Shown piece after piece: positions 3,376 through 61,195 of a stretch of 64,000 bases of DNA. Position 1 is the first letter of the stretch. Each line of letters opens with the position of its first letter. The notes under the pieces were generated by a model. That model worked only from the letters and a program-made list of their open reading frames with translations. It did not search any database and was not told the DNA's origin. The stretch is taken from positions 946-64,945 of the forward strand of contig CALZGC010000131.1 of the NCBI GenBank assembly GCA_945786985.1, in the 5' to 3' direction. A program made the position numbers and the translations under genes. The DNA comes from an uncultured Nitrospirota bacterium. GTDB lineage: Bacteria; CG2-30-53-67.

Positions 3376-3466
3376 GCCCTGGGAATTTCCGGCAAGGATA
3401 TGCAGCGCCCGCGGGAGATGGCCGAGGGCGCGGGACGGATCGTTTTGGTGCAGCGCAGGCAAGGGC

Positions 3467-4783
3467 TCAACTCCACTGAAAAGAGAAATTCTCCTGTGAT
3501 AAGATGTAGTCTCGCGCTTCTCCGACGGTATAGAGTGACCCGGTAATCACAATCAGATCGCCCCTGCGATAAAGGGACAGGGCCTTCACCACCGCCTCGG
3601 GAATATGCTCACAGACGTGCAGTGCTTGACGCAGCGCGGGGATTCTCCGGGCCAACCGATGGGGGTCTTCACCGCGTACATAGGCCGGTCGCGTTAGTAT
3701 CAGTTGATCCGCCAGCGGGAGCAAATGCTCTGCCACGGCAGCAATGTCTTTATCCTGAAGAATGCCCAGGACGAGCGTAAGGCGATCGAAAGACAGATCA
3801 TTCTCCAGCGCCCGCCGCAGGGCTTGCGCAGCATGGGGATTGTGAGCGCCATCCAGGAGAATCCGAGGCGCCGTCGAAATCATTTCCAGTCGCCCGGGCC
3901 AACGGGCAGCAGCCAAACCGCGTCGTACCGCGTCCTCGGGAATCTGCGCACCGTTTGCGATCAAACCTTCCACGACACCCAGCGCCAGCGTCGCATTCTC
4001 GACCTGGTAATCTCCGAGCATGTCGATCCTCAGCCCGGACCAGCGGATGCCCCGCCCCAAGTAATCGAAACACCGGGAGCCATCCCCGCCTTGCAACACA
4101 ACGGACTCCGCCCGGATCTCGCCACCCACACGGACAAGTCGGCTTCCCCGTTGCACACACAGCTCTCGCAGAACGTCCAGGGCCTCCGGCACCGCTGCGG
4201 CCGTCAGCACACCCACACCGGGTTTGATGATCCCCCCCTTTTCCCGAGCGATCTGCTCCAGTGTGTCGCCCAGGTGATCGGTGTGCTCCATGGCCACATT
4301 GGTAATAACCGAGAAAAGGGGATTTAACAGATTCGTCGCATCCAGACGCCCGCCGAGCCCCGTCTCCACCACAGCATAGTCGACCTGCTGTTCGCCAAAA
4401 TAGGCGAAGGCCATGGCCGTGGTCACCTCGAAATAGGTGGGCGCCACCGTTTCCGGTGCCGACCGGATGATGGCCCGGAGCCGCTCGGCCAAAGTCGCCA
4501 CCTGTTCCTCGGTGATTTCAACACCGGATATTTTGATCCGCTCAGTGAATCGGCTCAGATGGGGAGAGGTGTAAAGGCCGGTACGGAAACCTGCCTCCTG
4601 CAGCATCGAGGCCAGGAAGGTGGCCGTGGATCCCTTGCCGTTGGTGCCGGCAATATGGATCGACGGGAAGCGCCGGTGGGGATCCCCCATTTGCTGCATG
4701 AGCCAGCGGATGCGGTCCAACCCGAGGATGACGCCGTGCGAGTCCAGGCCTGCCAGCCAGGCCATGGCATCATCCATGTTCAT
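3467..4783 (-). CDS. folC: Dihydrofolate synthase / folylpolyglutamate synthase
   Basis: Mur-ligase family P-loop AGTNGKGST. 438 aa. Overlaps accD, which is conserved accD-folC synteny. Confidence 0.85.
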   Translation of the reverse strand: MNMDDAMAWLAGLDSHGVILGLDRIRWLMQQMGDPHRRFPSIHIAGTNGKGSTATFLASMLQEAGFRTGLYTSPHLSRFTERIKISGVEITEEQVATLAERLRAIIRSAPETVAPTYFEVTTAMAFAYFGEQQVDYAVVETGLGGRLDATNLLNPLFSVITNVAMEHTDHLGDTLEQIAREKGGIIKPGVGVLTAAAVPEALDVLRELCVQRGSRLVRVGGEIRAESVVLQGGDGSRCFDYLGRGIRWSGLRIDMLGDYQVENATLALGVVEGLIANGAQIPEDAVRRGLAAARWPGRLEMISTAPRILLDGAHNPHAAQALRRALENDLSFDRLTLVLGILQDKDIAAVAEHLLPLADQLILTRPAYVRGEDPHRLARRIPALRQALHVCEHIPEAVVKALSLYRRGDLIVITGSLYTVGEARDYILSQENFSFQWS

Positions 4784-5635: not shown

Positions 5636-6400
5636 TTACAGTTGAATAATGTCGCCTTCCTGAAGGACGTGCAGCCGACCCCCCAGTTCCAGCCGCAGCT
5701 CGTCGACAATGGCCTGTTCGTAATTCGGTTTCATATGGAAAATATAGACGGGGACTTCCGGCCGGTTCAACTTGCGCAGATCCTGCAGCAGCATGGAGGG
5801 CGTCATGTGACCGCTCACCTCGGCAATATGCTTCATCCCTTCAGGAAAGGAGGCCTCGATCAGAACCGCAGAGAGTTCGGGAACATTCCTGGCCGCCTCC
5901 CAGATCGCCTCGGTAGCGCATGTATCGCCCGTGTACAGCAGCGCCCTGCCCTGCTTTCGCAACAAGAGTCCCACCGAAGGGATCACATGGCTGACAGCAT
6001 GGGGCGTGATTTGAAAATCGCCGATCTGTGTGCACTCGCCCGGCCGGAGCCTCTCGAAGCGAAGCAGCGGCGTCTTGCCGTTGAAGATCCGTGTGAAATC
6101 GGGCCAGATGGAATCATTGAAGAGGTGCTGCCGGAGATCTTCCAGGACCCGGTCGATTGCAAATACCGTGATCGATCGATCGGTCTCACCGATGCGGTTG
6201 TCCACCAGAAAGGGGAGGTCCTTAATATGATCGAGATGCGCATGACTGATGATCACATTGTCTATCTTGCGCTGCCGCTCCAGTGTCAGCACGGACGCCG
6301 CCGTGCCAGCCTCCAGCAGGAGCTCATCATCGATCAGAAAGCCGACCGTCCTGGTCGTCAGGGTCTCTGACCCATGACACCCAAGCACCTCAAGTCTCAT
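5636..6400 (-). CDS. MBL-fold hydrolase, class-II 3',5'-cyclic-nucleotide phosphodiesterase-like
   Basis: Motif ISHAHLDHIKDLPFL matches the HxHLDH signature of class-II cNMP phosphodiesterases within the MBL superfamily. 254 aa. Confidence 0.5.
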   Translation of the reverse strand: MRLEVLGCHGSETLTTRTVGFLIDDELLLEAGTAASVLTLERQRKIDNVIISHAHLDHIKDLPFLVDNRIGETDRSITVFAIDRVLEDLRQHLFNDSIWPDFTRIFNGKTPLLRFERLRPGECTQIGDFQITPHAVSHVIPSVGLLLRKQGRALLYTGDTCATEAIWEAARNVPELSAVLIEASFPEGMKHIAEVSGHMTPSMLLQDLRKLNRPEVPVYIFHMKPNYEQAIVDELRLELGGRLHVLQEGDIIQL

Positions 6401-6543: not shown

Positions 6544-7239
6544 TCAGGTCAGACCGCCGAACTGATCTTTCATTTCAAGAAAACGGGCAAACTTCTCCAG
6601 AGCCTCCATGCGTAAGATGGAAACCCGCCCTTCCACCGCCCGAACCATCTTGGCCGCAGCCAGTTTCTTCAGAACCTCTTCCAATTGCCGCTCCGAGATG
6701 CCGGCACCGGTCGCCAGGTCCTCTCTCGGATAATCCATGACGAACTCCCCGGAGGCGGACGCTCCTCGCTCCCGAGCCAGCCGCCTCAGCAAATTCACAA
6801 CACGGCTTACGTTGTCTTTCAGCAGAAGGTTCTCGATCTGATTGTTGGCTTCCTGAAGACGGGCGGCCAGTTTTTTGATGACCCGCACGGAAATTTCCCC
6901 GTTCGTCCGAATCATGCTTTCAAACGTTTCCCGGTCAATGATGAGAATCTTGCAGTCTTCAATGACAGTGGCCGTCGCCGAACGGGGCCGGCTGTTCAGA
7001 ATGGCCATTTCACCGAAGAATTCCCCCTTACCGAGAACCACCAGGGTTTTTTCGACATGGCGCACCCGTTTGCTGATGCGAACCTTCCCGGAAAGAACGA
7101 TGTACATCTCCTGACCGGGGTCGCCCTCGTAAAAGAGGACCGTCCCCCTCGGGATAATCTCGCCATACTTGTCAAACAGATGGCTGACGCCGAGGGATTC
7201 CCGAGCAAGATCGAGTGAGCCTTCCGTTTCCAGAGTCAT
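6544..7239 (-). CDS. Crp/Fnr-family transcriptional regulator (cNMP-binding + HTH)
   Basis: cNMP-binding fold (..FFGEMAILNSRPRSATA..) with a C-terminal HTH. No N-terminal Cys cluster, so Crp-like rather than Fnr-like. Confidence 0.75.
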   Translation of the reverse strand: MTLETEGSLDLARESLGVSHLFDKYGEIIPRGTVLFYEGDPGQEMYIVLSGKVRISKRVRHVEKTLVVLGKGEFFGEMAILNSRPRSATATVIEDCKILIIDRETFESMIRTNGEISVRVIKKLAARLQEANNQIENLLLKDNVSRVVNLLRRLARERGASASGEFVMDYPREDLATGAGISERQLEEVLKKLAAAKMVRAVEGRVSILRMEALEKFARFLEMKDQFGGLT

Positions 7240-7252
7240 GTCTGCCCTCTCC

Positions 7253-8056
7253 TCAATGCTTATGGATGATTGCCGCCCGCAGACTTCGAATGAACGCGCC
7301 GACCTGTCGCGGGCACTCGGGGTCGCCCAATCTCTCCTCCATGAGGCCTACTAAAGCGCTACCGACGATCACCCCATCGGCAAAGCGGCTCACAGCCCGC
7401 ACCTGCTCCGGTGAGGAAATGCCGAACCCGACGCAGACCGGCTGGTTCGTGATCTGGCGAACCCCCTGCACCGCCGCCTCCACGCCGGCAGGTAGTTCCC
7501 CTCTGGCACCAGTCACGCCCGCGAGAGAGACATAATAGATGAACCCGCGGCTTACTTCGGAGACACGGCGGACCCGCTCCGGCGTGCTCGTCGGGGCAAG
7601 GAGAAAAACGGTGTCCAGATCGACCGCCCGAGCCGCCTCGATGAGCCCGTCGGCCTCCTCCGGAGGCAGGTCCGGGACGATCAATCCATCGGCGCCCGCC
7701 TCTCGGGCCCCTTCGGCAAAGCGCGCCACGCCGTGCCGGTAAATGGGATTGTAATACCCCATGAGCACCACGGGCACGGCCACATTCCTGCGGAACTCCC
7801 GGAGAAACCCGAGAATGCCCTTGACCGTGATACCGCCGGCCAATGCCCGCTGGGACGCCCGCTGGATGGTGGGGCCGTCGGCCAAAGGGTCGGAAAAAGG
7901 CATTCCCAACTCAATCAGGTCGGCGCCGTTCTCGGCCATCTCAACCAGACACCGCCCCGTCAAGTCAAGCGACGGATCCCCCGCAGTGACAAAAGGCATC
8001 AGCGCCGCCCGGCCCTCCTGCCGGAGCCGAAGAAAGACATCATCGATTCTGCTCAA
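7253..8056 (-). CDS. trpA: Tryptophan synthase alpha subunit
   Basis: 267 aa TrpA-like. Last gene of the trp operon. Confidence 0.9.
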   Translation of the reverse strand: MSRIDDVFLRLRQEGRAALMPFVTAGDPSLDLTGRCLVEMAENGADLIELGMPFSDPLADGPTIQRASQRALAGGITVKGILGFLREFRRNVAVPVVLMGYYNPIYRHGVARFAEGAREAGADGLIVPDLPPEEADGLIEAARAVDLDTVFLLAPTSTPERVRRVSEVSRGFIYYVSLAGVTGARGELPAGVEAAVQGVRQITNQPVCVGFGISSPEQVRAVSRFADGVIVGSALVGLMEERLGDPECPRQVGAFIRSLRAAIIHKH

Positions 8057-8070
8057 CCGATGCTCCCCAT

Positions 8071-9276
8071 CTAGAAACTCCCCCGCTTCTTCAAAATGTC
8101 AGCCACCTGATTCACATCCTTGTCACCCCGGCCGGAAAGGTTCAACACAACAACGTCATCGGTCCCCGTATGGGGGATCAGCTTTGTCAAATAAGCAATG
8201 GCGTGGGCGCTTTCGAGCGCGGGGATAATCCCTTCCGTTTGGGAAAGGAGCTTGAAGCCCTCCAAGGCCTCCTCATCGGTCACCGAAACGTATTCGGCCC
8301 GCCCCGAGGCATGGTAAAAGGCATGCTCCGGACCGACCCCAGGATAGTCCAGCCCCGCCGAAATCGAGTGTGCCGGTGTCACTTGACCGTCTTCGCTCTG
8401 CAGCAGATAGCTCAAGCTTCCGTGCAGGACGCCCTTCTCGCCTGCCGTAATAGACGCAGCATGCTGACCGGTCTCCAGGCCGAAGCCGGCGGCCTCTACG
8501 CCGATCATCCGGACCGCGGCATCCTCGACGAAGGGGTGAAACAAGCCGATGGCGTTACTGCCGCCCCCGACACAGGCCACCAGAATATCCGGCGCTCTGC
8601 CCTCCGCCGCCAGCATCTGTTCGCGCGTCTCCCGGCCGATGACCGACTGGAAATCCCGCACCAGCATGGGGTAGGGGTGGGGTCCAACCACGGAGCCGAT
8701 GATGTAATGGGTGTCAGCCACTTGGGTCACCCAGTCCCGAATCGCTTCGTTGCAGGCATCCTTCAGGGTTTTCGTGCCGCTGCTCACGGGGGTCACCGTC
8801 GCCCCCAGCAGACGCATGCGAAACACGTTGAGGGCCTGCCGCTCGATGTCCTCTTCGCCCATGAAGATCTCACAAGCCAGGCCGAACATGGCAGCCGCCG
8901 TGGCCGTGGCCACGCCGTGCTGCCCGGCGCCGGTTTCCGCAATAATTCGCTTCTTGCCCATCCGACGGGCCATCAGAATTTGACCAATGGCGTTGTTGAT
9001 CTTGTGTGCGCCCGTGTGATTGAGGTCTTCCCGCTTCAGGTAGATCCGGGCACCCCCCAGCCGCTTCGTCAGGCGTTCCGCCAGATAGAGCGCCGTGGGC
9101 CGCCCCACATAGTCCCGCAGATAAGCGTTGAACTCCTCTTCGAACGCGGGGTCCTGACGGACCCTGTCGAACTCTCTCGTGAGTTCGTTCAGAGCCGGCA
9201 TCAGGGTCTCCGGCACAAACCGGCCGCCGAACTCCTGAAAATGTCCTCGGGTGTCTGGAAGTCTCATGAACCTCAT
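8071..9276 (-). CDS. trpB: Tryptophan synthase beta subunit
   Basis: 401 aa. PLP-lysine region HTGAHKINN and the GGGSNAIG motif. Confidence 0.9.
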
Positions 9277-9911
9277 TCCTTGGGAGAAATCATTGCGTCG
9301 GCCCGCCGGACAGCCTGCAGGAATCGCCGCAATTTACGCGGATCCTTACTGCCGGGGGCCCGTTCCACGCCGGAGCTGACATCGACCCCGTAGGGCCGAA
9401 CCTCGGCGATGGCCCGGCCGACATTTTCGGGGGTCAGCCCCCCCGCCAGCAGCACCGGCTTGAGGGCCACGGCGCTGCGCGCCAGCGACCAGTCAAAGGC
9501 TTCCCCCGTGCCCCCGTAGCCCTTCTCCGAGTAACTGTCCAGCAGATACCCCGAGACATCATAGCGTTTCATCTCATCCAGGACGGAGACATCCCGCATA
9601 CGAAAAGCCTTCACCACTCGGCTCGTGAACCAATCACAGTATTCGGGCGTCTCGCTGCCGTGAAACTGAAGAAGCCCCAGATAGCAGTATGTCTCAATCT
9701 CCCGCACGATCTTAATCTGCTCGTCCACGAACACACCGACAACCGTTACCAATGGGGGGAGCAGCCGGATGATTTCCCGTGCCACATCGGGATCGAGATA
9801 GCGGGGGCTCTTCGGGTAAAAGATGAACCCCAGGGCGTCGGCCCCGGCTTCAACGGCGCACAGGGCATCGTCCAGACTGGTGATCCCGCAAACCTTGACC
9901 CGGGTCTTCAC
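9273..9911 (-). CDS. trpF: Phosphoribosylanthranilate isomerase
   Basis: 212 aa. [11 protein letters not shown]... N-terminus. 4-bp overlaps with both trpC and trpB. Confidence 0.85.
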
Positions 9912-10699
9912 CTCACGCTCCTGTAGTGGAGCAGTTCCCTCAGTTTCTCCCCTGGATCGGGGACGCGCATCAGCGCCTCTCCGACGAGCACCGCGTCGAC
10001 CCGGTCCGCCAAGCGCGCCATATCGCGCGGCTCCCGGATCCCGCTTTCACTGACCACCACCCGGTCCGACGAAATGCCCCCCACCAGGGCCAGGGTCGTT
10101 TGCAGATCGGTCACAAAGGTCTTCAGGTTACGGTTGTTTATGCCGATCACCTCGGCAGACGAGGCGACGGCCCGCGCCAGTTCCTCGGCCGTGTGCACCT
10201 CTACCAGCGCCGTCATGCCCAGGTCCCGTCCCAATCCGATGAGCGACTCGAGCCGGGCGTCGTCGAGGAGGGAGACGATCAGCAGAAAGGCATCGGCTCC
10301 CAGAACACGCGCCTCCACCACCTGGTAGGGCTCCAGCATAAAATCCTTCCGCAGCAGCGGGAGCGTTACCGCCTCACCGATCCGGGTCAGATAGCTGGGA
10401 TGCCCCTGGAAAAAGTCTTCCTCCGTCAGGACGGAAATGGCCGATGCGCCGGCGGCCGCATACTGGCGAGCAATATCCACCGGATCCATGTCGGTGCGGA
10501 TGATGCCTTTGGAGGGGGACGCCTTTTTGACTTCGGCGATCACCCTGATCAGACCACCCGTCTCACGCCGGATACTCGCCGTAAAGTCGCGCACTGAGCG
10601 GCTGTCGCTGACTCTCTCCTGCAGAGCCTCCAAGGGAAGCACCTTCTTCCGTTCGGCCACTCTTCGCGCAACTACCTGAACTATATCATCTAGAATCAA
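9908..10699 (-). CDS. trpC: Indole-3-glycerol-phosphate synthase
   Basis: 263 aa IGPS fold (..KASPSKG.. / ..NNRNLKTF..). Confidence 0.85.
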   Translation of the reverse strand: MILDDIVQVVARRVAERKKVLPLEALQERVSDSRSVRDFTASIRRETGGLIRVIAEVKKASPSKGIIRTDMDPVDIARQYAAAGASAISVLTEEDFFQGHPSYLTRIGEAVTLPLLRKDFMLEPYQVVEARVLGADAFLLIVSLLDDARLESLIGLGRDLGMTALVEVHTAEELARAVASSAEVIGINNRNLKTFVTDLQTTLALVGGISSDRVVVSESGIREPRDMARLADRVDAVLVGEALMRVPDPGEKLRELLHYRSVR

Positions 10700-10812
10700 G
10701 GCTTACAAACCCTTTTTGACTCGGCAGCCCGGCGGACGAAGCCGCTGTTCACATACTGAAACACGACAGATCAACGCCTGTCATCGCGCCCTGGAAAGCA
10801 CCGGACACAGCC

Positions 10813-11829
10813 TCATGCCTTCCCCTGGCTCACCTGTTTCAATGCCTCCAGCTTTTGCATCGCCCGGCCCGAATCAATCGCCTCGCGGGCCACCCCAACG
10901 GCCTCCCCGATCGATCGGGTCCTGCCGGCCACATAAATGGCGGCGGCCGCGTTGAGCAGGGTGATATCCTTTTTCGGCCCGGCCGCTCCCCGAAGAATGG
11001 AGAGAGTGATCCCGGCGTTTTCCGCGGCGTTGCCCCCCTTGAGGGCCTCGGCACTGCAGCAGGAAAACCCAAGTTCCTCCGGATCCAGGTCAAAGGTATA
11101 GACGCGCCCCTGCCGGAGCTCGGAAACTTTGGTCTTCCCGGTCAGGGTTATTTCATCCAGGCCGTCGTGGCCGTGCACCACATAGGCGTGCCGGGTTCCC
11201 AGTTCCTCAAGGACTTCGCATACCGTTTCCGTCAGTCCCTCGGCGTAGACGCCGATCACCTGATTGGGGGCACCCGCGGGATTTGTCAGGGGTCCGAGAA
11301 TGTTGAAAACCGTGCGAATGCCGATCTCCCGTCTCGGACCGATGGCGTGCTTCATGGCGCCGTGCAGCAGCGGCGCGAAGAGAAACCCCATCCCCACCTC
11401 CCCGATGCAGCGCCGCACCACATCCAGCCCGGCGTCGATGTTCACGCCGAGGGCCTGAAAAAGATCGGCGCTTCCGCTCTGGCTCGAAACCGACCGGTTC
11501 CCGTGCTTGGCCACTGGGACGCCTGCTCCGGCCACCACAAAGGCCGCGGTGGTGGAAATATTGAAGGTTCTGGCACCGTCGCCTCCGGTGCCGCAGGTGT
11601 CCACCAGATCCGCGACATCCACGTCGACCCGCAGGACGCGGTCCCGCATGACCTGGGCGCAGGCCGTGATCTCCTGCACCGTCTCTCCCTTGATCCGCAG
11701 GGCTGTGATGAAGGCCGCGACCTGAGCCGGGGTGGCCCGCCCACCCATGATGTCATCCATCGCCCCGTAGCAATCGTCGCGGTTCAGGTCCTGCCCCTCT
11801 ACGACTTTCTTGATGGCGTTTACAATCAT
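10813..11829 (-). CDS. trpD: Anthranilate phosphoribosyltransferase
   Basis: 338 aa. GTGGDG motif. Confidence 0.9.
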   Translation of the reverse strand: MIVNAIKKVVEGQDLNRDDCYGAMDDIMGGRATPAQVAAFITALRIKGETVQEITACAQVMRDRVLRVDVDVADLVDTCGTGGDGARTFNISTTAAFVVAGAGVPVAKHGNRSVSSQSGSADLFQALGVNIDAGLDVVRRCIGEVGMGFLFAPLLHGAMKHAIGPRREIGIRTVFNILGPLTNPAGAPNQVIGVYAEGLTETVCEVLEELGTRHAYVVHGHDGLDEITLTGKTKVSELRQGRVYTFDLDPEELGFSCCSAEALKGGNAAENAGITLSILRGAAGPKKDITLLNAAAAIYVAGRTRSIGEAVGVAREAIDSGRAMQKLEALKQVSQGKA

Positions 11830-11891
11830 GAACCCCTCCGGGAATCATGCGTCTTTCGCTGCGGCCGGTCCACCGCACGATGTCCGATGCG

Positions 11892-12458
11892 TCACCGCTG
11901 TTTCAGAAAATTCCGCAACAAATCGTGTCCCACTTCGGTCAGAATCGACTCGGGATGGAACTGAACCCCCTCCAAGGGAAGTTGCTTGTGGCGGACCCCC
12001 ATGATCTCGCCGTCATCAGCTTCGGCAGTGATTTCGAAAGTATCCGGCAGACTCTCCCGGAGAATCACCAGGGAGTGATAACGGGTTGCGACAAAGGGGT
12101 TGGGAAGCCCCTCAAAAACCGACCTGCCGTCATGCCGGATCTCGGAAATCTTGCCGTGCATCAGCCGCCCGGCACCGACGATTTTCGCCCCGAAAGCGGC
12201 ACCCATCGACTGATGCCCCAGGCAGACGCCGAGGATCGGCAGCTTACCCGCAAAGTGCCGAATGGCCGCCACCGAGATCCCCGCCTCCCGCGGCGTACAC
12301 GGACCGGGAGAGATGACCATCCGATCCGGCCGCAGGGCCTCGATCTCCTCAATCGTGATCTTGTCGTTTCGGTAGACCGCCAGTTCCTCTCCCAACTCCC
12401 CAAGGTACTGCACCAGGTTGTAGGTGAAAGAATCGTAGTTGTCGATCATTAGAAGCAC
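11892..12458 (-). CDS. trpG: Anthranilate synthase component II (glutamine amidotransferase)
   Basis: 188 aa class-I GATase (..GVCLGHQ..). GTG start at 12458 (in-frame ATG at 12449). Confidence 0.85.
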
Positions 12459-12696
12459 AAAAACACCCAGTCAAAGATTAAAGACAAAAAATCAAAAATA
12501 AAGCATGAGGTCTGTCACGGCCATGTTGAGCCTTACATTTGGATTCTTGCCTTTCAACTCCTTCTCAATGGACAGATGAAGCCCAAGGAATGATCTCCTC
12601 TATCATAATCTTGATCTGCTTCTTGTCTCTAAACTTTTTGATCTTTGCCCTTTGATTCTTGATTTGCCTTATCTTTGATCCTTAAGCTTTGATCTT
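12459..12696. repeat. Low-GC (~38%) repeat-rich intergenic spacer inside the trp operon (GATCAAAG-type degenerate direct repeats)
   Basis: 238 bp between the trpE stop and the trpG start. On the operon strand, at least six copies of (A)GATCAA(A/G)G spaced about 8-17 nt apart. No ORF of 60 aa or more. Confidence 0.6.
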
Positions 12697-14187
12697 TCAA
12701 TTGTTATCTATCCCTTGCCGCGCAATCTCGATCGCCTTCAACATCCCCCGGGCCTTGTTGAGGGTCTCCTCGTACTCCCGCTCCGGATCGGAGTCAGCCA
12801 CAATGCCGGCGCCGGCCTGCAGGTAGAGATCCTCACCCCGGACAATAATGGTCCGAATGGTGATACAGGTGTCCATGTTTCCGGAAAAGCCGATGTAGCC
12901 GACCGCCCCCGCGTAGGGCCCGCGCCGCACCGGTTCGAGCTCCTCGATGATTTCCATGGCCCGGATCTTGGGAGCCCCCGATACCGTGCCGGCCGGAAAA
13001 CAGGCGCGCAGAACATCATAGGCGTCTTTGCCGGGAGCCAGCAGGCCCACCACATCCGAGACAATATGCATGACGTGGGAGTACTTCTCAATGACCATCA
13101 GCTCCTGCACCTCCACCGTCCCCGTGCGGACCACACGCCCCACGTCGTTGCGCCCGAGATCGACCAGCATGATATGCTCCGCACGCTCCTTGGGGTCGGC
13201 CAGCAGCTCTTCCATGAGCCGCGCGTCTTCGGCGGCATCCTGGCCGCGGGGGCGGGTGCCGGCGATGGGCCGCACCTCCACCCGATCCTGCTCCACCCGG
13301 ACGAGTACCTCCGGTGAGGAACCGATGATACGGATCTCCCCCATGCGCAGAAAATACATATAGGGCGAGGGATTGACCGTCCGCAGAACCCGGTAGATAT
13401 CGAAGGGATCATTCTTAAGCTGCGCATGGAATCGCTGGGACAGCACCACCTGAATGACGTCGCCCGCCACAATGTAATCCTTGGCCCGGTTCACCGCCTG
13501 GTGGAAATGCTCCCGAGAAAAACTGGACGCCGGAATGTCGACCGCCACCTTCCGGGGCAGGGACAGATTCACGATTTCGCACGGGACATTAAGCTGCGCA
13601 ATCATCCGGTCGATCCGCTCGCCGGCCTCCCGGTAACGGGCCTCGGGATCGTCCCCTTCTTCCAGGAAAACGTTGGAGACCACCAGGATCTTCTTCTCGT
13701 GGTTGTCGAAGATGAGCAGATCATACATGACCATGAGCAACAGATCCGGAAATCCAGAGTCCTCCTTGGCGATTTCGGGAATCTCTTCGAAGTACCGGAC
13801 CATATCGTAGCCCATGTAGCCGACCGCGCCCCCGACGAAACGGGGCAGGTCCGGATCGCTCACCGGCCTGAACTGAGACATCCGCTGCCGTACAAACTCC
13901 AGGGGGTCTTCCCCCTCCCGCCGCGCCTCAACCACGCCGTTGCGTGTCCAACGGACTTCGTTCCCCCTGGCCTCGAGCAAGGCACCGGGCGCACTCCCGA
14001 GAAAGCTGTAGCGGCCCCACTTCTCGCCCCCTTCCACACTCTCGAACAGGAAAGAAAACCGTCCGTCATCGATCTTCCGGAAGGCGGAGACAGGGGTCTC
14101 CATGTCGGCCAGGATCTCCTTGTAGACGGGCACAAGATTGCCTTCGCCCGATCGGCGGAGGAACTCCTTCAGGGATGGGTAGAGCAT
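12697..14187 (-). CDS. trpE: Anthranilate synthase component I
   Basis: 496 aa chorismate-binding enzyme. First gene of trpEGDCFBA. Confidence 0.9.
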   Translation of the reverse strand: MLYPSLKEFLRRSGEGNLVPVYKEILADMETPVSAFRKIDDGRFSFLFESVEGGEKWGRYSFLGSAPGALLEARGNEVRWTRNGVVEARREGEDPLEFVRQRMSQFRPVSDPDLPRFVGGAVGYMGYDMVRYFEEIPEIAKEDSGFPDLLLMVMYDLLIFDNHEKKILVVSNVFLEEGDDPEARYREAGERIDRMIAQLNVPCEIVNLSLPRKVAVDIPASSFSREHFHQAVNRAKDYIVAGDVIQVVLSQRFHAQLKNDPFDIYRVLRTVNPSPYMYFLRMGEIRIIGSSPEVLVRVEQDRVEVRPIAGTRPRGQDAAEDARLMEELLADPKERAEHIMLVDLGRNDVGRVVRTGTVEVQELMVIEKYSHVMHIVSDVVGLLAPGKDAYDVLRACFPAGTVSGAPKIRAMEIIEELEPVRRGPYAGAVGYIGFSGNMDTCITIRTIIVRGEDLYLQAGAGIVADSDPEREYEETLNKARGMLKAIEIARQGIDNN

Positions 14188-14217
14188 CTCATTCCTCGTT
14201 TGTACAAAAGATCTTAA

Positions 14218-14248
14218 TATTTAGCATATTGGTGACAGGTGTGTCAAG
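14218..14248 (-). promoter_or_regulatory. Candidate sigma70 promoter for trpE (TTGACA-N17/18-TAAATA)
   Basis: Minus strand: gttcTTGACAcacctgtcaccaatatgcTAAATAttaag, about 30-60 bp upstream of the trpE ATG. Confidence 0.3.
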
Positions 14249-14301
14249 AACTTCACATGGCGTAACTGCAGACAACAAAAGGGGAAACTGCTCTCGATCA
14301 C

Positions 14302-14342
14302 AAAAAAAGCACCCGGTGCCGTTGCGGATGCGGCACGGGTGC
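14302..14342 (-). terminator. Intrinsic-terminator-like hairpin (12-bp GC-rich stem, 9-nt loop, followed by T7 on the minus strand) in the trpE upstream region
   Basis: Minus-strand read: GCACCCGTGCCG-catccgcaa-CGGCACGGGTGC-TTTTTTTG, about 150 nt upstream of the trpE start. Divergent intergenic region, so there is no upstream minus-strand gene for it to terminate. Confidence 0.5.
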
Positions 14343-14552
14343 TTTCTTCTGAAAACCCGACCAGACAGCTAATAAACCACAAGATCGGTTTGTTGACTTA
14401 AAATTTATTCTGCCTGCCGGGTCCATTATGTAGCCAGACTATAGCGGAGGATCGGCGCTCTGTCAAGGTGGCGCTTAACATTTGTGAGCGGTCATCGTCT
14501 GTGGTATACATGGAGGAAACTGCAACCGACCACCGGCAGGGGAGACCTAATA

Positions 14553-15044
14553 ATGAGCCAGAAATTTTCGGGACAGGAAATCGTCGATATCGCCATCCGA
14601 ATCGAGAAGAACGGTGAAGCCCTCTATAAGGCACTTGCCGAACAAACCGAATACATGGATGTGAAACACGCCTTCAAAGCCCTGGCCAACGAAGAGAAAC
14701 AGCACATCGAATCGTTTGATCGCATCCGGGAACTGATCGGAAACTTTGCAGCGCAGGAGGCCTATCCGGGAGAGTACACTCTCTACCTGCAGGCACTCAT
14801 CGAAGAAAACGTCTTCTCCAAGGCCGACATCTTCCTGGAGCTGGCCAGAAAAGTCGCGACGGTTCCGGAGGCCCTCGACTTGGCGCTCGCGTTCGAAAAG
14901 GAGACGATCATCTTCCTCAACGGCGTCAGGGATGCTCTCGAAACGGACGATTTCCCCATTCTCAACGAATTGATTGAGCAGGAAAAGGAACACGTTCTCA
15001 AGCTGTCCGAGATCAAGCAGACCCTTACTACCAAAACAGACTGA
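14553..15044 (+). CDS. Ferritin-like/rubrerythrin-domain protein
   Basis: 163 aa (MSQKFSGQEIVDIAIRIEKNGEALYKALAE...EKQHIESF...), a four-helix-bundle ferritin-like pattern. RBS GGGGAGA before the ATG at 14553 (the ORF-track start at 14484 lacks an RBS). Confidence 0.5.
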   Translation: MSQKFSGQEIVDIAIRIEKNGEALYKALAEQTEYMDVKHAFKALANEEKQHIESFDRIRELIGNFAAQEAYPGEYTLYLQALIEENVFSKADIFLELARKVATVPEALDLALAFEKETIIFLNGVRDALETDDFPILNELIEQEKEHVLKLSEIKQTLTTKTD

Positions 15045-15134
15045 TCTCAGATCTCGCGCACCGGGGAACACCCCCGCGACACCGGACGGCTGGACATCGC
15101 TTAAAGCCGGTGCGGACACATGCCGTTCGGGCCC

Positions 15135-16487
15135 TCACGATTCCGGATCGCCCATGTCCCCCATCAGCCGGGCCGAGTCGGCAGCGGGGAGCTCCGCCAC
15201 CTTCCGCAGCTTCCGTTCGATGTTTCGAGACTTGCGGGCCGCACTCTCAATGGTGTTGCCCGCTTCCTTGAGTTTCTTCTGCGTCTTCTCCAGGATGTCC
15301 CCGAACTTTCCGAACTCCGTCTTGACCGCCCCCAGGAGTGCCCATACCTCACTGGAACGCTTCTCAATGGCCAGGGTTCGGAACCCCATTTGAAGGCTGT
15401 TGAGAAAGGCCGAAAGGGTGGTAGGGCCGGTCACCGTCACCCGGTGCTCCCGCTGCAGAAAATCGAAGAGACCGGAGCGGCGCAGAACCTCCGCATAGAG
15501 CCCCTCCGTCGGCAGGAACATGACGGCGAAATCGGTGGTGTGGGGCGGGTCGATATATTTGTCTTTGATCTCCCGGGCGCTCGCCTTGATCCTGAGTTCC
15601 AGCTGTTTCGCAGCCTCCTCGGCCCGGGCAGCATCGGCCGCCTCCTGCGCGGCCAGAAGCCTTTCATAATCCTCCTGCGGAAACTTGGCATCCAGAGGGA
15701 GCCAGACTTCCTGACCATTGCTTTCGTCCCGCCCGGGAAATCGGATGGCAAACTCCACACGGTGGCTGCTGCCCCGCTTGGTCGCCACGTTTCGGGCGTA
15801 TTGATCCTGGGTCAGAATCTCCTCGAGGATCGCCCCCAGTTGGATCTCCCCCCAGGTTCCGCGGGTCTTCACATTGGTCAAAACCCGCTTGAGGTCGCCC
15901 ACACCGGCCGCCAGGGTCTGCATCTCCCCGAGCCCCTGGTGGACCATCTCGAGGCGCTCGCTCACCAGTTTGAACGACTCGCCCAGTCGCTTCTCCAGAG
16001 TTTCATGCAATTTTTCGTCCACAATCGCCCGCATCTGATCTAGTTTCCGGCTGTTTTCGTCCTGGAGGCCTTTGAGCCGGGTATCCAGGGCCTGACGCAG
16101 GGACTCGAGTTTCGCCTCATTGGTCTGTGTCAGCGATGAGAGCTGTTTGGCAAAGGAGTCGAGCTGATCCTTCTGGAGGTGTGAAATCTGCGACGTCTGG
16201 GAGAGGAGTGAGTCGGTGAAGAATTTCAGGGAGCTGCGCAGTTCGTCACGACCTTGTCTGGCGTTGTAGGCGGCTTCCTCCCGATTGACCGAGAGTTCCT
16301 CCTTGACGGCCCGTTCGATCCGTTCCTGATCCCGTTCCACGGACGAGAAGCCTTCTTCCTGGTGGCGGCGCAACGATCCGTACCGCGCCACCAGGACGAT
16401 GATCAGTATCAGAGCGACCAGGAGAAGGAGACCGCCGATGAGTGCCGGCCAGCCCGATGTCAGCAGATGTTGCAGTTGGGGGTTCAT
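15135..16487 (-). CDS. rmuC: DNA recombination protein RmuC
   Basis: N-terminal TM helix, long coiled coil and a C-terminal RmuC nuclease-like domain. Start at MNPQLQ (16487) with RBS GGAGAGG. Confidence 0.75.
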   Translation of the reverse strand: MNPQLQHLLTSGWPALIGGLLLLVALILIIVLVARYGSLRRHQEEGFSSVERDQERIERAVKEELSVNREEAAYNARQGRDELRSSLKFFTDSLLSQTSQISHLQKDQLDSFAKQLSSLTQTNEAKLESLRQALDTRLKGLQDENSRKLDQMRAIVDEKLHETLEKRLGESFKLVSERLEMVHQGLGEMQTLAAGVGDLKRVLTNVKTRGTWGEIQLGAILEEILTQDQYARNVATKRGSSHRVEFAIRFPGRDESNGQEVWLPLDAKFPQEDYERLLAAQEAADAARAEEAAKQLELRIKASAREIKDKYIDPPHTTDFAVMFLPTEGLYAEVLRRSGLFDFLQREHRVTVTGPTTLSAFLNSLQMGFRTLAIEKRSSEVWALLGAVKTEFGKFGDILEKTQKKLKEAGNTIESAARKSRNIERKLRKVAELPAADSARLMGDMGDPES

Positions 16488-20921: not shown

Positions 20922-21104
20922 CTAGCCCGGATATTGCATGAGTAAATCTATTACGAGGCCGGATCGTCTGCCACATGCGGCGTTACAGAGAATTTTCTGA
21001 CTTCGAGATATTTCAATATATCTTCAGCCAGTAAATTCTCTGCGCCTTGCCTGTGGCGCCCCTACGGCCTCTCATGACGATCACCTATGCAATATCCGGA
21101 CTAA
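20922..21104. mobile_element. MITE-like miniature inverted-repeat element, copy 1 (inverted orientation relative to copies 2-4)
   Basis: Ends CTAGCCCGGATATTGCATGAGT ... ACCTATGCAATATCCGGACTAA. The interior is the reverse complement of the conserved core of copies 3 and 4. Confidence 0.75.
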
Positions 21105-37720: not shown

Positions 37721-38076
37721 CTAGCCCGGACATTGCATGAGTGATCGTCATGAGAGGCCCCAGAGGTGCTAGAGGCGCCACAAGCAAGGCGCAGAAGATT
37801 TTCTGGCTGAAGACATATTGAAATATTTAAGTGGTCCTGTTCGCAAGTATGGTGACGTATCGAGAGGGTCGTAGCGCGGTCTCCTCAAGGCGCGCGACTG
37901 AGGCGTGCCCCCTGCGGTACGACGCAGGGAGCGCCACGCAGAGGAGGGCGCACTACGGCACTCGAATGCCATCGTATTTGCGAATAGGGCCACCAGATCA
38001 ATAAATTTTCTGTAACGCCGCATGTGGCAGACTATCCGGCCTCCTAATAGATTGACTCATGCAATATTCGGGCTAA
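37721..38076. mobile_element. MITE-like element, copy 3 (longest, ~356 bp; putative full-length form)
   Basis: CTAGCCCGGACATTGCATGAGTGATCGTCATGAGAGGCCCCAGAGG...GCAAGGCGCAGAAGATTTTCTGGCTGAAG...TTCTGTAACGCCGCATGTGGCAGACTATCCGGCCTCCTAATAGATTGACTCATGCAATATTCGGGCTAA. The interior holds GC-rich palindromes (CCCTGCGgtacgaCGCAGGG). No ORF. Confidence 0.8.
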
Positions 38077-52500: not shown

Positions 52501-52691
52501 CTAACCTGGATATTGCATGAGTCATCGTCGTGAGAGGCCCCCCAGATCCTGGAGGCGCCACAGTCAAGGCGCAGAAGATTGACTGGCTGAAGGCCTATTG
52601 AAGTATTTCGAAGTCAGTAAATCTTCTGTAACGCCACATGGAGCAGACTATCCCGCCCCGCAATTGATTGCCTCATGCAATGTACGGGCTA
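52501..52691. mobile_element. MITE-like element, copy 4 (~191 bp, internal-deletion derivative of copy 3)
   Basis: CTAACCTGGATATTGCATGAGTCATCGTCGTGAGAGGCCCC...GTCAAGGCGCAGAAGATTGACTGGCTGAAGG...TTCTGTAACGCCACATGGAGCAGACTATCC...CCTCATGCAATGTACGGGCTA. Confidence 0.8.
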
Positions 52692-61004: not shown

Positions 61005-61195
61005 TTACATAGGGAGGCATAGTTCCAGGCGCTCTTATGAGCTTAATAGGGAATCCCGTCAAAACGGGAACGGGCCCGCCGCTGTGATCGGGGACGAACA
61101 CCGGAACAGGCCACTGTCTCACCGAGTGAGACGGGAAGGCACGGTCAGTAGGACGATCCGAGAGTCAGAAGACCTGCCTGGAAACGAGGGGTGCG
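61005..61195 (+). ncRNA. Cobalamin (adenosylcobalamin) riboswitch
   Basis: Conserved elements: AATAGGGAATCC...GTCAAAACGGGAA, the B12-box-like GCCACTG, GGGAAGGC and AGTCAGAAGACCTGCC. Located in the 5' leader of a TonB-dependent receptor gene. Confidence 0.8.

Follow-up and report, generated by a model that had tools for sequence, protein, structure and literature searches.

Intergenic direct repeats of heptamers are known from cyanobacteria as STRR, which are of the same kind as the TAACTGA arrays. The intervening sequence (IVS) of the Coxiella 23S rRNA has terminal inverted repeats with a 28-bp stem, carries in its 5' region tandem heptameric repeats (GACAGAT) whose number is variable among strains, is cut by RNase III at the first repeat, contains an S23p open reading frame (ORF) in reductive evolution, and was judged by its authors to be selfish and possibly neutral (PMC4990558). 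The Correia and ERIC elements are co-transcribed palindromic repeats that can change the stability of the flanking mRNA (PMC2229807), and the TAACTGA intergenic heptamer arrays, found in Beggiatoaceae, Cyanobacteria and Bacteroidetes, adjoin start codons with poor ribosome-binding sites (PMC4679880). Here we consider a stretch of 64,000 nucleotides (nt) of contig CALZGC010000131.1 of an uncultured Nitrospirota bacterium (the whole stretch is called the window below), in which the trpE and trpG genes of a complete trpEGDCFBA operon on the minus strand are separated by an intercistronic spacer of 238 nt (12459..12696, minus strand). An earlier reading that was made from the letters alone (the sequence-only reading) had pointed to this spacer as an anomalous, repeat-rich segment, possibly a regulatory element or the remnant of a foreign insertion. 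We propose that the spacer is a lineage-specific, non-coding, ORF-less insertion that resembles an IVS or a miniature inverted-repeat transposable element (MITE), having the form of a palindrome of heptamer repeats, and that it is largely neutral. We give this proposal a probability of roughly 55%.

Read along the operon strand, the spacer consists in order of a 5' heptamer array, a unique core of about 100 nt, an inverted heptamer array and the trpG initiation region. The 5' arm (12610..12696, minus strand) is a degenerate direct-repeat array of period 7 with the consensus (G)ATCAAAG, having about 10 units (about 87 nt) and being A/G-rich on the operon strand. The core (12508..12609, minus strand) is without repeats. 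The 3' arm (12471..12507, minus strand; inverted repeats I1-I13) is T-rich, its units being CTTTGAT-like, the reverse complements of those in the 5' arm. The degenerate GATCAARG array that had been described by the sequence-only reading is real: the operon strand of the spacer has two exact copies, GATCAAAG, and three copies with one mismatch, giving five copies with at most one mismatch versus 0.72 expected, and none of 2000 dinucleotide shuffles of the spacer reaches five. The units are spaced by multiples of 7, with the lag-7 autocorrelation giving z = 3.0 in the window and z = 4.0 in the homologous spacer of a close relative (locus L082), and the strongest lag-7 segment in the whole 64 kb is that at 12634-12707, with only one other, borderline, segment. 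Six of the window's 50 operon-strand ATCAA copies fall in the spacer, and the remaining five exact copies of GATCAAAG in the window stand isolated. Note also that no array is called in the spacer by Tandem Repeats Finder, because the units are too degenerate. A look for other arrays, which had been suggested together with the sequence-only reading, gave no further ATCAAAG array within the 64-kb window.

The T-rich run before trpG, the 13-codon minus-strand ORF with a Trp codon (MIEEIIPWASSVH, 12606..12565) and the small plus-strand ORF (24 aa, 12505-12579) that had been pointed out are all there. What had been overlooked is that the T-rich run is the reverse complement of the 5' repeat unit (CTTTGAT), the spacer being an imperfect palindrome. 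The arms at 12473-12505 and 12665-12697 (33 nt) are 76% complementary, and when the 5' arm is aligned locally to the reverse-complemented 3' arm, the score is 16 in the window, as compared with a shuffle mean of 10.8 (7/500 shuffles). The arm-to-arm alignment is also above shuffles in the homologous spacers of the two related loci L081 (0/500) and L082 (4/500). TTGA is present at both ends of the spacer, one copy lying within an arm unit and the other overlapping the trpE stop, and no empty site is alignable. As to composition, the GC content of the spacer is 37% versus 59% for the window. While the length and the GC content that had been given for this anomalous segment are confirmed, the low GC as such is not exceptional, because values of 36-40% over 200 nt are also reached elsewhere in the window, in three ordinary regions that are intergenic or carry promoters (near 32.4, 33.4 and 42.5 kb). 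The odd feature of the spacer is a non-coding-type composition at such a length inside an operon. It is also observed that GATC occurs 502 times in the window, i.e., 7.8 times per kb, which is about twice the expectation from base composition.

The comparison with relatives supports the inserted nature of the spacer. The best TrpE match in the species-representative collection is at 60% (a Candidatus Methylomirabilis metagenome-assembled genome, MAG), and the closer relatives were obtained from a large protein collection; one relative, with TrpE at 79%, is labelled as a 'Nitrospirae bacterium' MAG. Homologous spacers are confined to the window and the three nearest relatives found, namely L081 (TrpE 93%), with a trpE-trpG spacer of 212 nt and 40% GC, and L082 and L093 (TrpE 91%), with a spacer of 206 nt and 35% GC. 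These share the layout of the window with fewer units, the ATCAA count being 6 in the window, 3 in L082 and 2 in L081. The spacer is absent from the relatives with TrpE at 77-81% (L083, L084-86, L087-92 and L102-104). In L087-92 and L102-103 (TrpE 77-80%) the trpE-trpG spacer is GC-normal, has 83-110 nt and is not alignable, and alignment to the GC-normal spacers of the 77-81% relatives gave no convincing homology beyond the trpG start. In L084-86 (TrpE 79%) the trpE-trpG junction has 12 nt and the trpG-trpD junction has 255 nt, filled with GGGGTCAA units and their complement (in L084, GGGGTCAA with TTGAACCC; 6062-6316). In L104 (TrpE 81%) the trpE-trpG junction has about 27 nt and the trpG-trpD junction carries a GCTGACA / GCTGATC array (2636-2750). 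In L083 (TrpE 81%) the trpE-trpG junction carries an unrelated CTATCTA-type repeat and the trpG-trpD junction an AATCAAG...TTTTGAT hairpin with no core (array region 3405-3610). Thus, the comparison of junctions in related genomes that had been advised gives a clear pattern, with the spacer kept in L081, L082 and L093 and missing at 77-81%, and the earlier suggestion of an inserted element or the remnant of a foreign insertion is borne out as far as the insertion is concerned. The operon junctions of the clade have thus been filled repeatedly and independently by different heptamer arrays, with the window's version present on one shallow branch only.

The way in which the spacer evolves is also consistent with a largely neutral insertion. 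When the spacers of the window, L081 and L082 are compared in pairs, the aligned columns show 61-70% identity, and the gap columns number 43, 53 and 26, many of them falling in the 5' arm. For trpE, trpG and trpD of these genomes, identity at four-fold degenerate sites is 60-70%. Since the divergence of the spacer equals that of the four-fold sites, the spacer as a whole drifts at about the neutral rate. The best-conserved part of it is the core, with a three-way identity of 13-14/20 versus 0-9/20 in the 5' arm. Inside the core, the block TTCATnnGTCCATTGAG (12564..12580, minus strand, as located in the alignment of the window, L081 and L082) is invariant among the three genomes at 15 of its 17 positions. 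By a rough binomial estimate, the probability that such a block arises by chance anywhere in the spacer is about 0.06, and its conserved status is thus suggestive only. The last 25 nt or so of the spacer also stand out, with a weak Shine-Dalgarno (SD)-like GGGUG (12468..12464), 5 nt and then the GUG (12458..12456). This trpG translation start (12456..12468, minus strand) is conserved in L081 and L082. We take the GTG at 12458 as the start of trpG because the profile alignment runs from residue 1 and the position of the start codon is kept in relatives: TrpG begun at this GTG matches the family profiles (NCBIfam) from residue 1, and the start reads GTG-CTT-YTR-ATG in the closest relatives and ATG-CTN-CTN-ATG in the more distant ones (77-81%). 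The sequence-only reading was therefore right in giving trpG a GTG start, but trpG is not strictly devoid of a ribosome-binding site, the conserved GGGUG being located 5 nt 5' of the GUG. The constrained parts are limited to this initiation region (GGGUG-N5-GUG) and, perhaps, the short core block.

The plan of the spacer is met again outside this clade. In a survey of the junctions of 80 more distant trp loci, the trpE-trpG gap is at least 60 nt in 32 of 68 junctions, which is above every other trp junction, with trpF-trpB having only 1 of 37. Among 28 distinct trpE-trpG spacers, 7 fold far beyond shuffles (z from -3 to -10). Many of the distant spacers share, by eye, the plan of the window, i.e., short direct repeats and then their complements, as in L001 (3500-3611; GTTCGGCA... 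and then ...CACCGAAC), in L079 (GTGAAGC... and then GCTTCAC) and, again by eye, in L051, L063 and L042, where the spacers are made of a repeat and its complement. In two loci such arms accompany an ORF of PF05635, the four-helix-bundle S23p family of the IVS. In L061 the PF05635 ORF (3666-4127, 49.8 bits) lies exactly between trpE and trpG and has GCATTTA-type arms of 30 nt that are 97% complementary. In L052 the ORF (6718-7140, 142.6 bits) is found some hundreds of nt 3' of trpG, with a further ORF on either side, and has GCTATCA / TGATAGC arms of 33 nt that are 91% complementary. The records with heptamer-armed cassettes are labelled as Nitrospirota, Methylomirabilota, Chloroflexota, Desulfobacterota, Verrucomicrobiota and Actinomycetota.

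Besides these, many phyla have different heptamer or octamer arrays at the trpE-trpG or the trpG-trpD junction, which are lineage-specific and often accompanied by their complements. Loci of the Chloroflexi type have an entire gene between trpE and trpG, and this gene, judged by eye from the translations, looks like that of tryptophanyl-tRNA synthetase (trpS) in L042 and L058. A PGAM/histidine-phosphatase-like gene, again judged by eye from the translations, lies between the two genes in L063, L066, L067 and L078.

Based on these cassettes, a more far-reaching proposal can be made, namely that heptamer-armed hairpin cassettes with or without PF05635 are one widespread mobile or self-expanding class that occupies both 23S rRNA and operon junctions, with the spacer being an ORF-less 'IVS inside an mRNA' that is cut by RNase III and splits the trp transcript. 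We regard this proposal as speculative and rather unlikely. What gives it interest is that the plan of a heptamer array and its mirror image, sometimes with a PF05635 gene, recurs at the trp junctions of unrelated phyla and matches the published 23S rRNA IVSs; a literature search found no paper placing PF05635/IVS elements or intergenic heptamer hairpins in operon junctions. If they are one class of element, IVSs would be general colonisers of transcribed spacers rather than an rRNA peculiarity, and operon junctions would provide a simple system for studying the origin, spread and processing of IVS-type elements.

Several points weigh against the reading of the spacer as an inserted and largely neutral element. 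Firstly, as regards mobility, the element is single-copy in the 64-kb window, in 872 kb of fetched loci, in the pattern scan of metagenome contigs, and in plasmids and phages. When an nhmmer profile built from the three spacers was run against the window and the fetched loci, it recovered the spacers themselves and the matches of the pattern scan, and no further copy. The core pattern TTCATNNGTCCATTGAGNNNNANTTG had 8 chance matches in the metagenome contigs, all apparently unrelated and probably coding DNA without arms, and blastn against the plasmid and phage collections gave no match to the spacer. Secondly, the link with the IVS cassettes is one of architecture only, because no PF05635 remnant is detectable in the core: none is found in the core frames (Pfam, E<=10), and a phmmer search of the window with the protein of L061 gives no match. 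Thirdly, the arms are only 76% complementary, as compared with 91-97% in the ORF-bearing cassettes, and the predicted RNA is no stabler than shuffles. Fourthly, the 15/17 block and a small hairpin (AUGAU/AUCAU in the window and AUGAG/CUCAU in L081) hint at a constraint that is unlike a purely neutral relic. Finally, conservation and covariation are weakly powered because there are only three distinct spacer sequences.

With the spacer taken as a largely neutral insertion, its history and effect can be pictured as follows. The element entered the trpE-trpG junction once, before the window genome and its three nearest relatives diverged, and the number of units would then have changed by replication slippage. 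The spacer is presumably co-transcribed with the operon, because it has no terminator or conserved promoter inside. Its main effect would be passive, consisting in the uncoupling of trpG translation from that of trpE, in which case trpG would initiate alone at the weak GGGUG-GUG site behind the U-rich tract. In the mRNA the A-rich and the U-rich arms could pair into a long imperfect stem, which here looks degraded, and this stem might be a target of RNase III or affect the decay of the message, as with the IVS, Correia and ERIC elements.

The last point leads to an alternative, in which the spacer is a functional intercistronic RNA hairpin, an 'IVS in an mRNA' whose paired arms are cut by RNase III or steer decay and thus bring about different levels of the trpE and the trpGDCFBA messages. 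It is noted that the complementarity of the arms is retained in the three genomes despite their differing arm sequence and length, that the 5' arm pairs with the 3' arm in all three minimum-energy folds, and that, over the three genomes, pairing in the outer 10-bp helix reaches 90% and includes 2 compensatory pairs. Precedents are provided by the RNase III-cut stems of the IVS (PMC4990558) and by the effect of Correia and ERIC on neighbouring mRNA (PMC2229807), and strong hairpins are frequent in other trpE-trpG spacers. However, the z of the minimum free energy of the spacer RNA is -0.17, -1.19 and -1.49 for the three genomes, i.e., not significant and no more stable than shuffles, and the RNAalifold consensus of the three spacers reaches only -11.7 kcal/mol over 271 columns. 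On this consensus, 91% of the pairs are formed versus 86% in shuffles, and there are 7 compensatory pairs versus 3.5, counts that are weak and biased because the scored structure is derived from the same three sequences. Moreover, the arms are A-U rich as well as imperfectly complementary, and relatives with the same operon and leader do without the element. We therefore regard a functional hairpin as doubtful. A candidate covarying stem round the conserved block, UCCUU/AAGGA in the window and CUUGUU/AACAAG in L081, was dropped, the two being found in different alignment registers.

Another alternative is that the AT-rich spacer contains an internal promoter that drives trpGDCFBA apart from the trpE leader, as had been suggested by the sequence-only reading, and this could matter if TrpG also serves the synthesis of para-aminobenzoate. 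Low GC is typical of the promoter regions of the window, TrpG is near the cut-off of the amphibolic PabA/TrpG model NF005799 (315.6 versus 327 bits), and trpE-trpG is the trp junction that is most often expanded across phyla. The spacer of the window has two operon-strand promoter-like matches of 9/12, at 12631..12602 (TAGAGA-18-TATGAT) and at 12474..12445, with TATGAT being nearly conserved (TATGAG in L081). However, the sigma-70-type scan gave no operon-strand promoter-like match in the spacer of L081 or L082, the TATGAG of L081 lacks the final T of the -10 hexamer, and the second site of the window overlaps the trpG start codon. In addition, the invariant CTTGACA -35 boxes of the clade's real promoters have no counterpart in the spacer, and the junctions of 12-27 nt in the 79-81% relatives imply that no such promoter is needed there. 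The matches being present in the window only, the promoter that had been suggested is not supported, and we consider it quite improbable.

An equally improbable alternative is a binding platform, in which the heptamers would be bound as RNA by S1, a cold-shock or a CsrA-like protein, acting as an enhancer or repressor of trpG translation, or as DNA by integration host factor (IHF) or a GATC-recognising protein. The IHF core consensus is ATCAANNNNTTR, which is fitted by ATCAAAGCTTA of the spacer, and there are 5 GATC in the 238 nt. The array has period 7, CspB is reported to bind heptamer repeats with one protein per unit, and the U-rich tract is directly 5' of the weak SD and the GUG. TAACTGA heptamers 5' of start codons were proposed as sites of a post-transcriptional regulator (PMC4679880). 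However, neither the number nor the sequence of the units is conserved, as the ATCAA counts given above show, and in related genomes the heptamers at this or other junctions are quite different ones. There is also no regulon, because the window has no other ATCAAAG array. The protein-binding repeat array that had been put forward from the letters thus finds no backing in the comparison.

A further set of searches bears on the control by tryptophan. For the spacer, nothing was found in Rfam, T-box included, at the gathering score (whole window), at E<=10 (11800-15200) or at E<=1 (L081 and L082), and the terminator scan gave none in any of the three spacers (window, L081 and L082). TRAP sites hold about 9-11 (G/U)AG triplets; the longest TRAP-like (G/U)AG chain with 2-3-nt spacing in the spacers of the three genomes is 2, 1 and 2. 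The ORF MIEEIIPWASSVH was rejected as a leader peptide for lack of conservation in both the Trp codon and the frame, L081 having MREALISCFSSVH with no Trp and the frame of L082 being shifted by a 2-nt indel. A remnant of a protein gene was also rejected, with the main conserved frames, the 24-aa plus-strand ORF and the frame of the 5' arm and the 13-codon ORF giving no Pfam match at E<=10. A classical Trp control element inside the operon, be it a leader-peptide attenuator, a T-box or a TRAP-type site, has in its favour the one Trp codon in the 13-codon ORF and the setting in a trp operon, and with the Trp codon missing in L081, the frame broken in L082, no terminator hairpin, no T-box or other Rfam match and chains of at most 2 triplets, it is, as far as sequence analysis goes, refuted and has a negligible probability, the attenuator of the sequence-only reading included. 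The spacer is thus not the operon's tryptophan-sensing element and probably not its regulator. For annotators, this means that it should be read neither as an attenuator nor as a promoter, and the result at this locus is mostly deflationary.

By contrast, the region upstream of trpE shows how a constrained element of this operon looks. A structured leader RNA with an intrinsic terminator (14301..14443, minus strand) lies downstream of P1 (14466..14438) and upstream of P2 (14247..14218), both of which are promoter-like. The layout upstream of trpE is common to all relatives down to TrpE 77%, whatever gene lies further upstream, and it consists in order of a promoter-like CTTGACAG-N16/17-GTATAGT, a conserved RNA of about 110 nt, an intrinsic terminator and a promoter-like CTTGACA-N17/18-TGnTAAAnA. 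The leader RNA forms a long imperfect hairpin that is followed by GCACCCGUGCCG...CGGCACCGGGUGCUUUUUUU, and it folds with -59.1 kcal/mol (z = -7.1). Its consensus is 93% paired, with 13 pairs having compensatory changes versus 4.9 in shuffles (0/500), and slid controls are 34-56% paired. With a covariance model, the leader RNA is recovered from each of the 13 clade loci in which the region is present (TrpE 77-93%), while the 80 distant loci give no match. No Rfam match (E<=10, 11800-15200) and no conserved leader peptide were found for it. Thus, the conserved control region of the operon probably lies upstream of trpE and not in the spacer. The leader RNA is a candidate for a new trp-linked attenuator, riboswitch or small RNA, and it is a better candidate than the spacer for new tryptophan-linked regulation in this uncultured lineage. 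The sole real Rfam match in the window is a cobalamin riboswitch at 61010-61195 on the plus strand (108.8 bits).

As for the operon itself, all seven genes are named by NCBIfam equivalog-level matches. They are located on the minus strand as follows: trpE (anthranilate synthase component I) at 14187..12697, with TIGR00564 at 592 bits and the stop TGA at 12699..12697; trpG (glutamine amidotransferase component II) at 12458..11892, with TIGR00566 at 283 bits; trpD at 11829..10813; trpC at 10699..9908; trpF at 9911..9273; trpB at 9276..8071; and trpA at 8056..7253. Other than the trpE-trpG gap of 238 nt, the junctions are 62 nt (GC 0.66), 113 nt (GC 0.58), two 4-nt overlaps and 14 nt, so the statement that the other trp junctions are tight and GC-rich was correct. 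In the 113-nt region (window 10700-10812) and in the homologous trpD-trpC spacers of L081-L091, the motif AAAGGTTTGTAAGC occurs directly 5' of the trpC start (TTG, ATG or GTG). It is conserved across the clade and is probably the ribosome-binding region of trpC. Elsewhere in the window there is a MITE-like family of three copies (20923-21103, 37722-38075 and 52502-52691) with terminal inverted repeats CTAGCCCGGAYATTGCATGAGT, the middle copy having an internal insertion of about 165 nt. Its sequence has no relation to that of the trp spacer.

Finally, we compare the spacer with the known systems. Like the TAACTGA arrays, it has non-coding units of period 7 that end near a start codon with a poor SD, and it is lineage-specific. 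Those arrays, however, have near-perfect units, mostly in direct orientation only, and a single heptamer recurs at hundreds of places in a genome, whereas the spacer holds a lone degenerate array together with its complement in inverted orientation. With the ERIC/IRU, Correia/NEMIS, RUP and MITE-like elements it has in common a size of 100-250 bp, imperfect terminal inverted repeats, an intergenic location within transcription units, a potential long mRNA stem-loop and an insertion polymorphism among relatives (PMC2229807). Those elements, however, are dispersed and multi-copy, with a consensus and target-site duplications, while the spacer is single-copy in the searched sequence and its arms are internally repetitive heptamer arrays. 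From the IVSs with the S23p/PF05635 ORF, as in Coxiella and Leptospira, the spacer differs in being located at an intercistronic site of an mRNA rather than in helix 25 or 45 of the 23S rRNA, in having no ORF or detectable PF05635 remnant, and in having arms that are 76% complementary rather than near-perfect. We do not class it as an IVS, because the defining ORF is absent and the site is not rRNA. Nevertheless, it seems to act like, or to descend from something like, an IVS: the heptamers of its 5' arm vary in number among close relatives, its 3' arm is complementary to them so that the two form terminal inverted repeats, it lies inside a presumably transcribed region and appears to be decaying under little selection, and the same arm plan surrounds the bona fide PF05635 ORFs at the operon junctions of L061 and L052.

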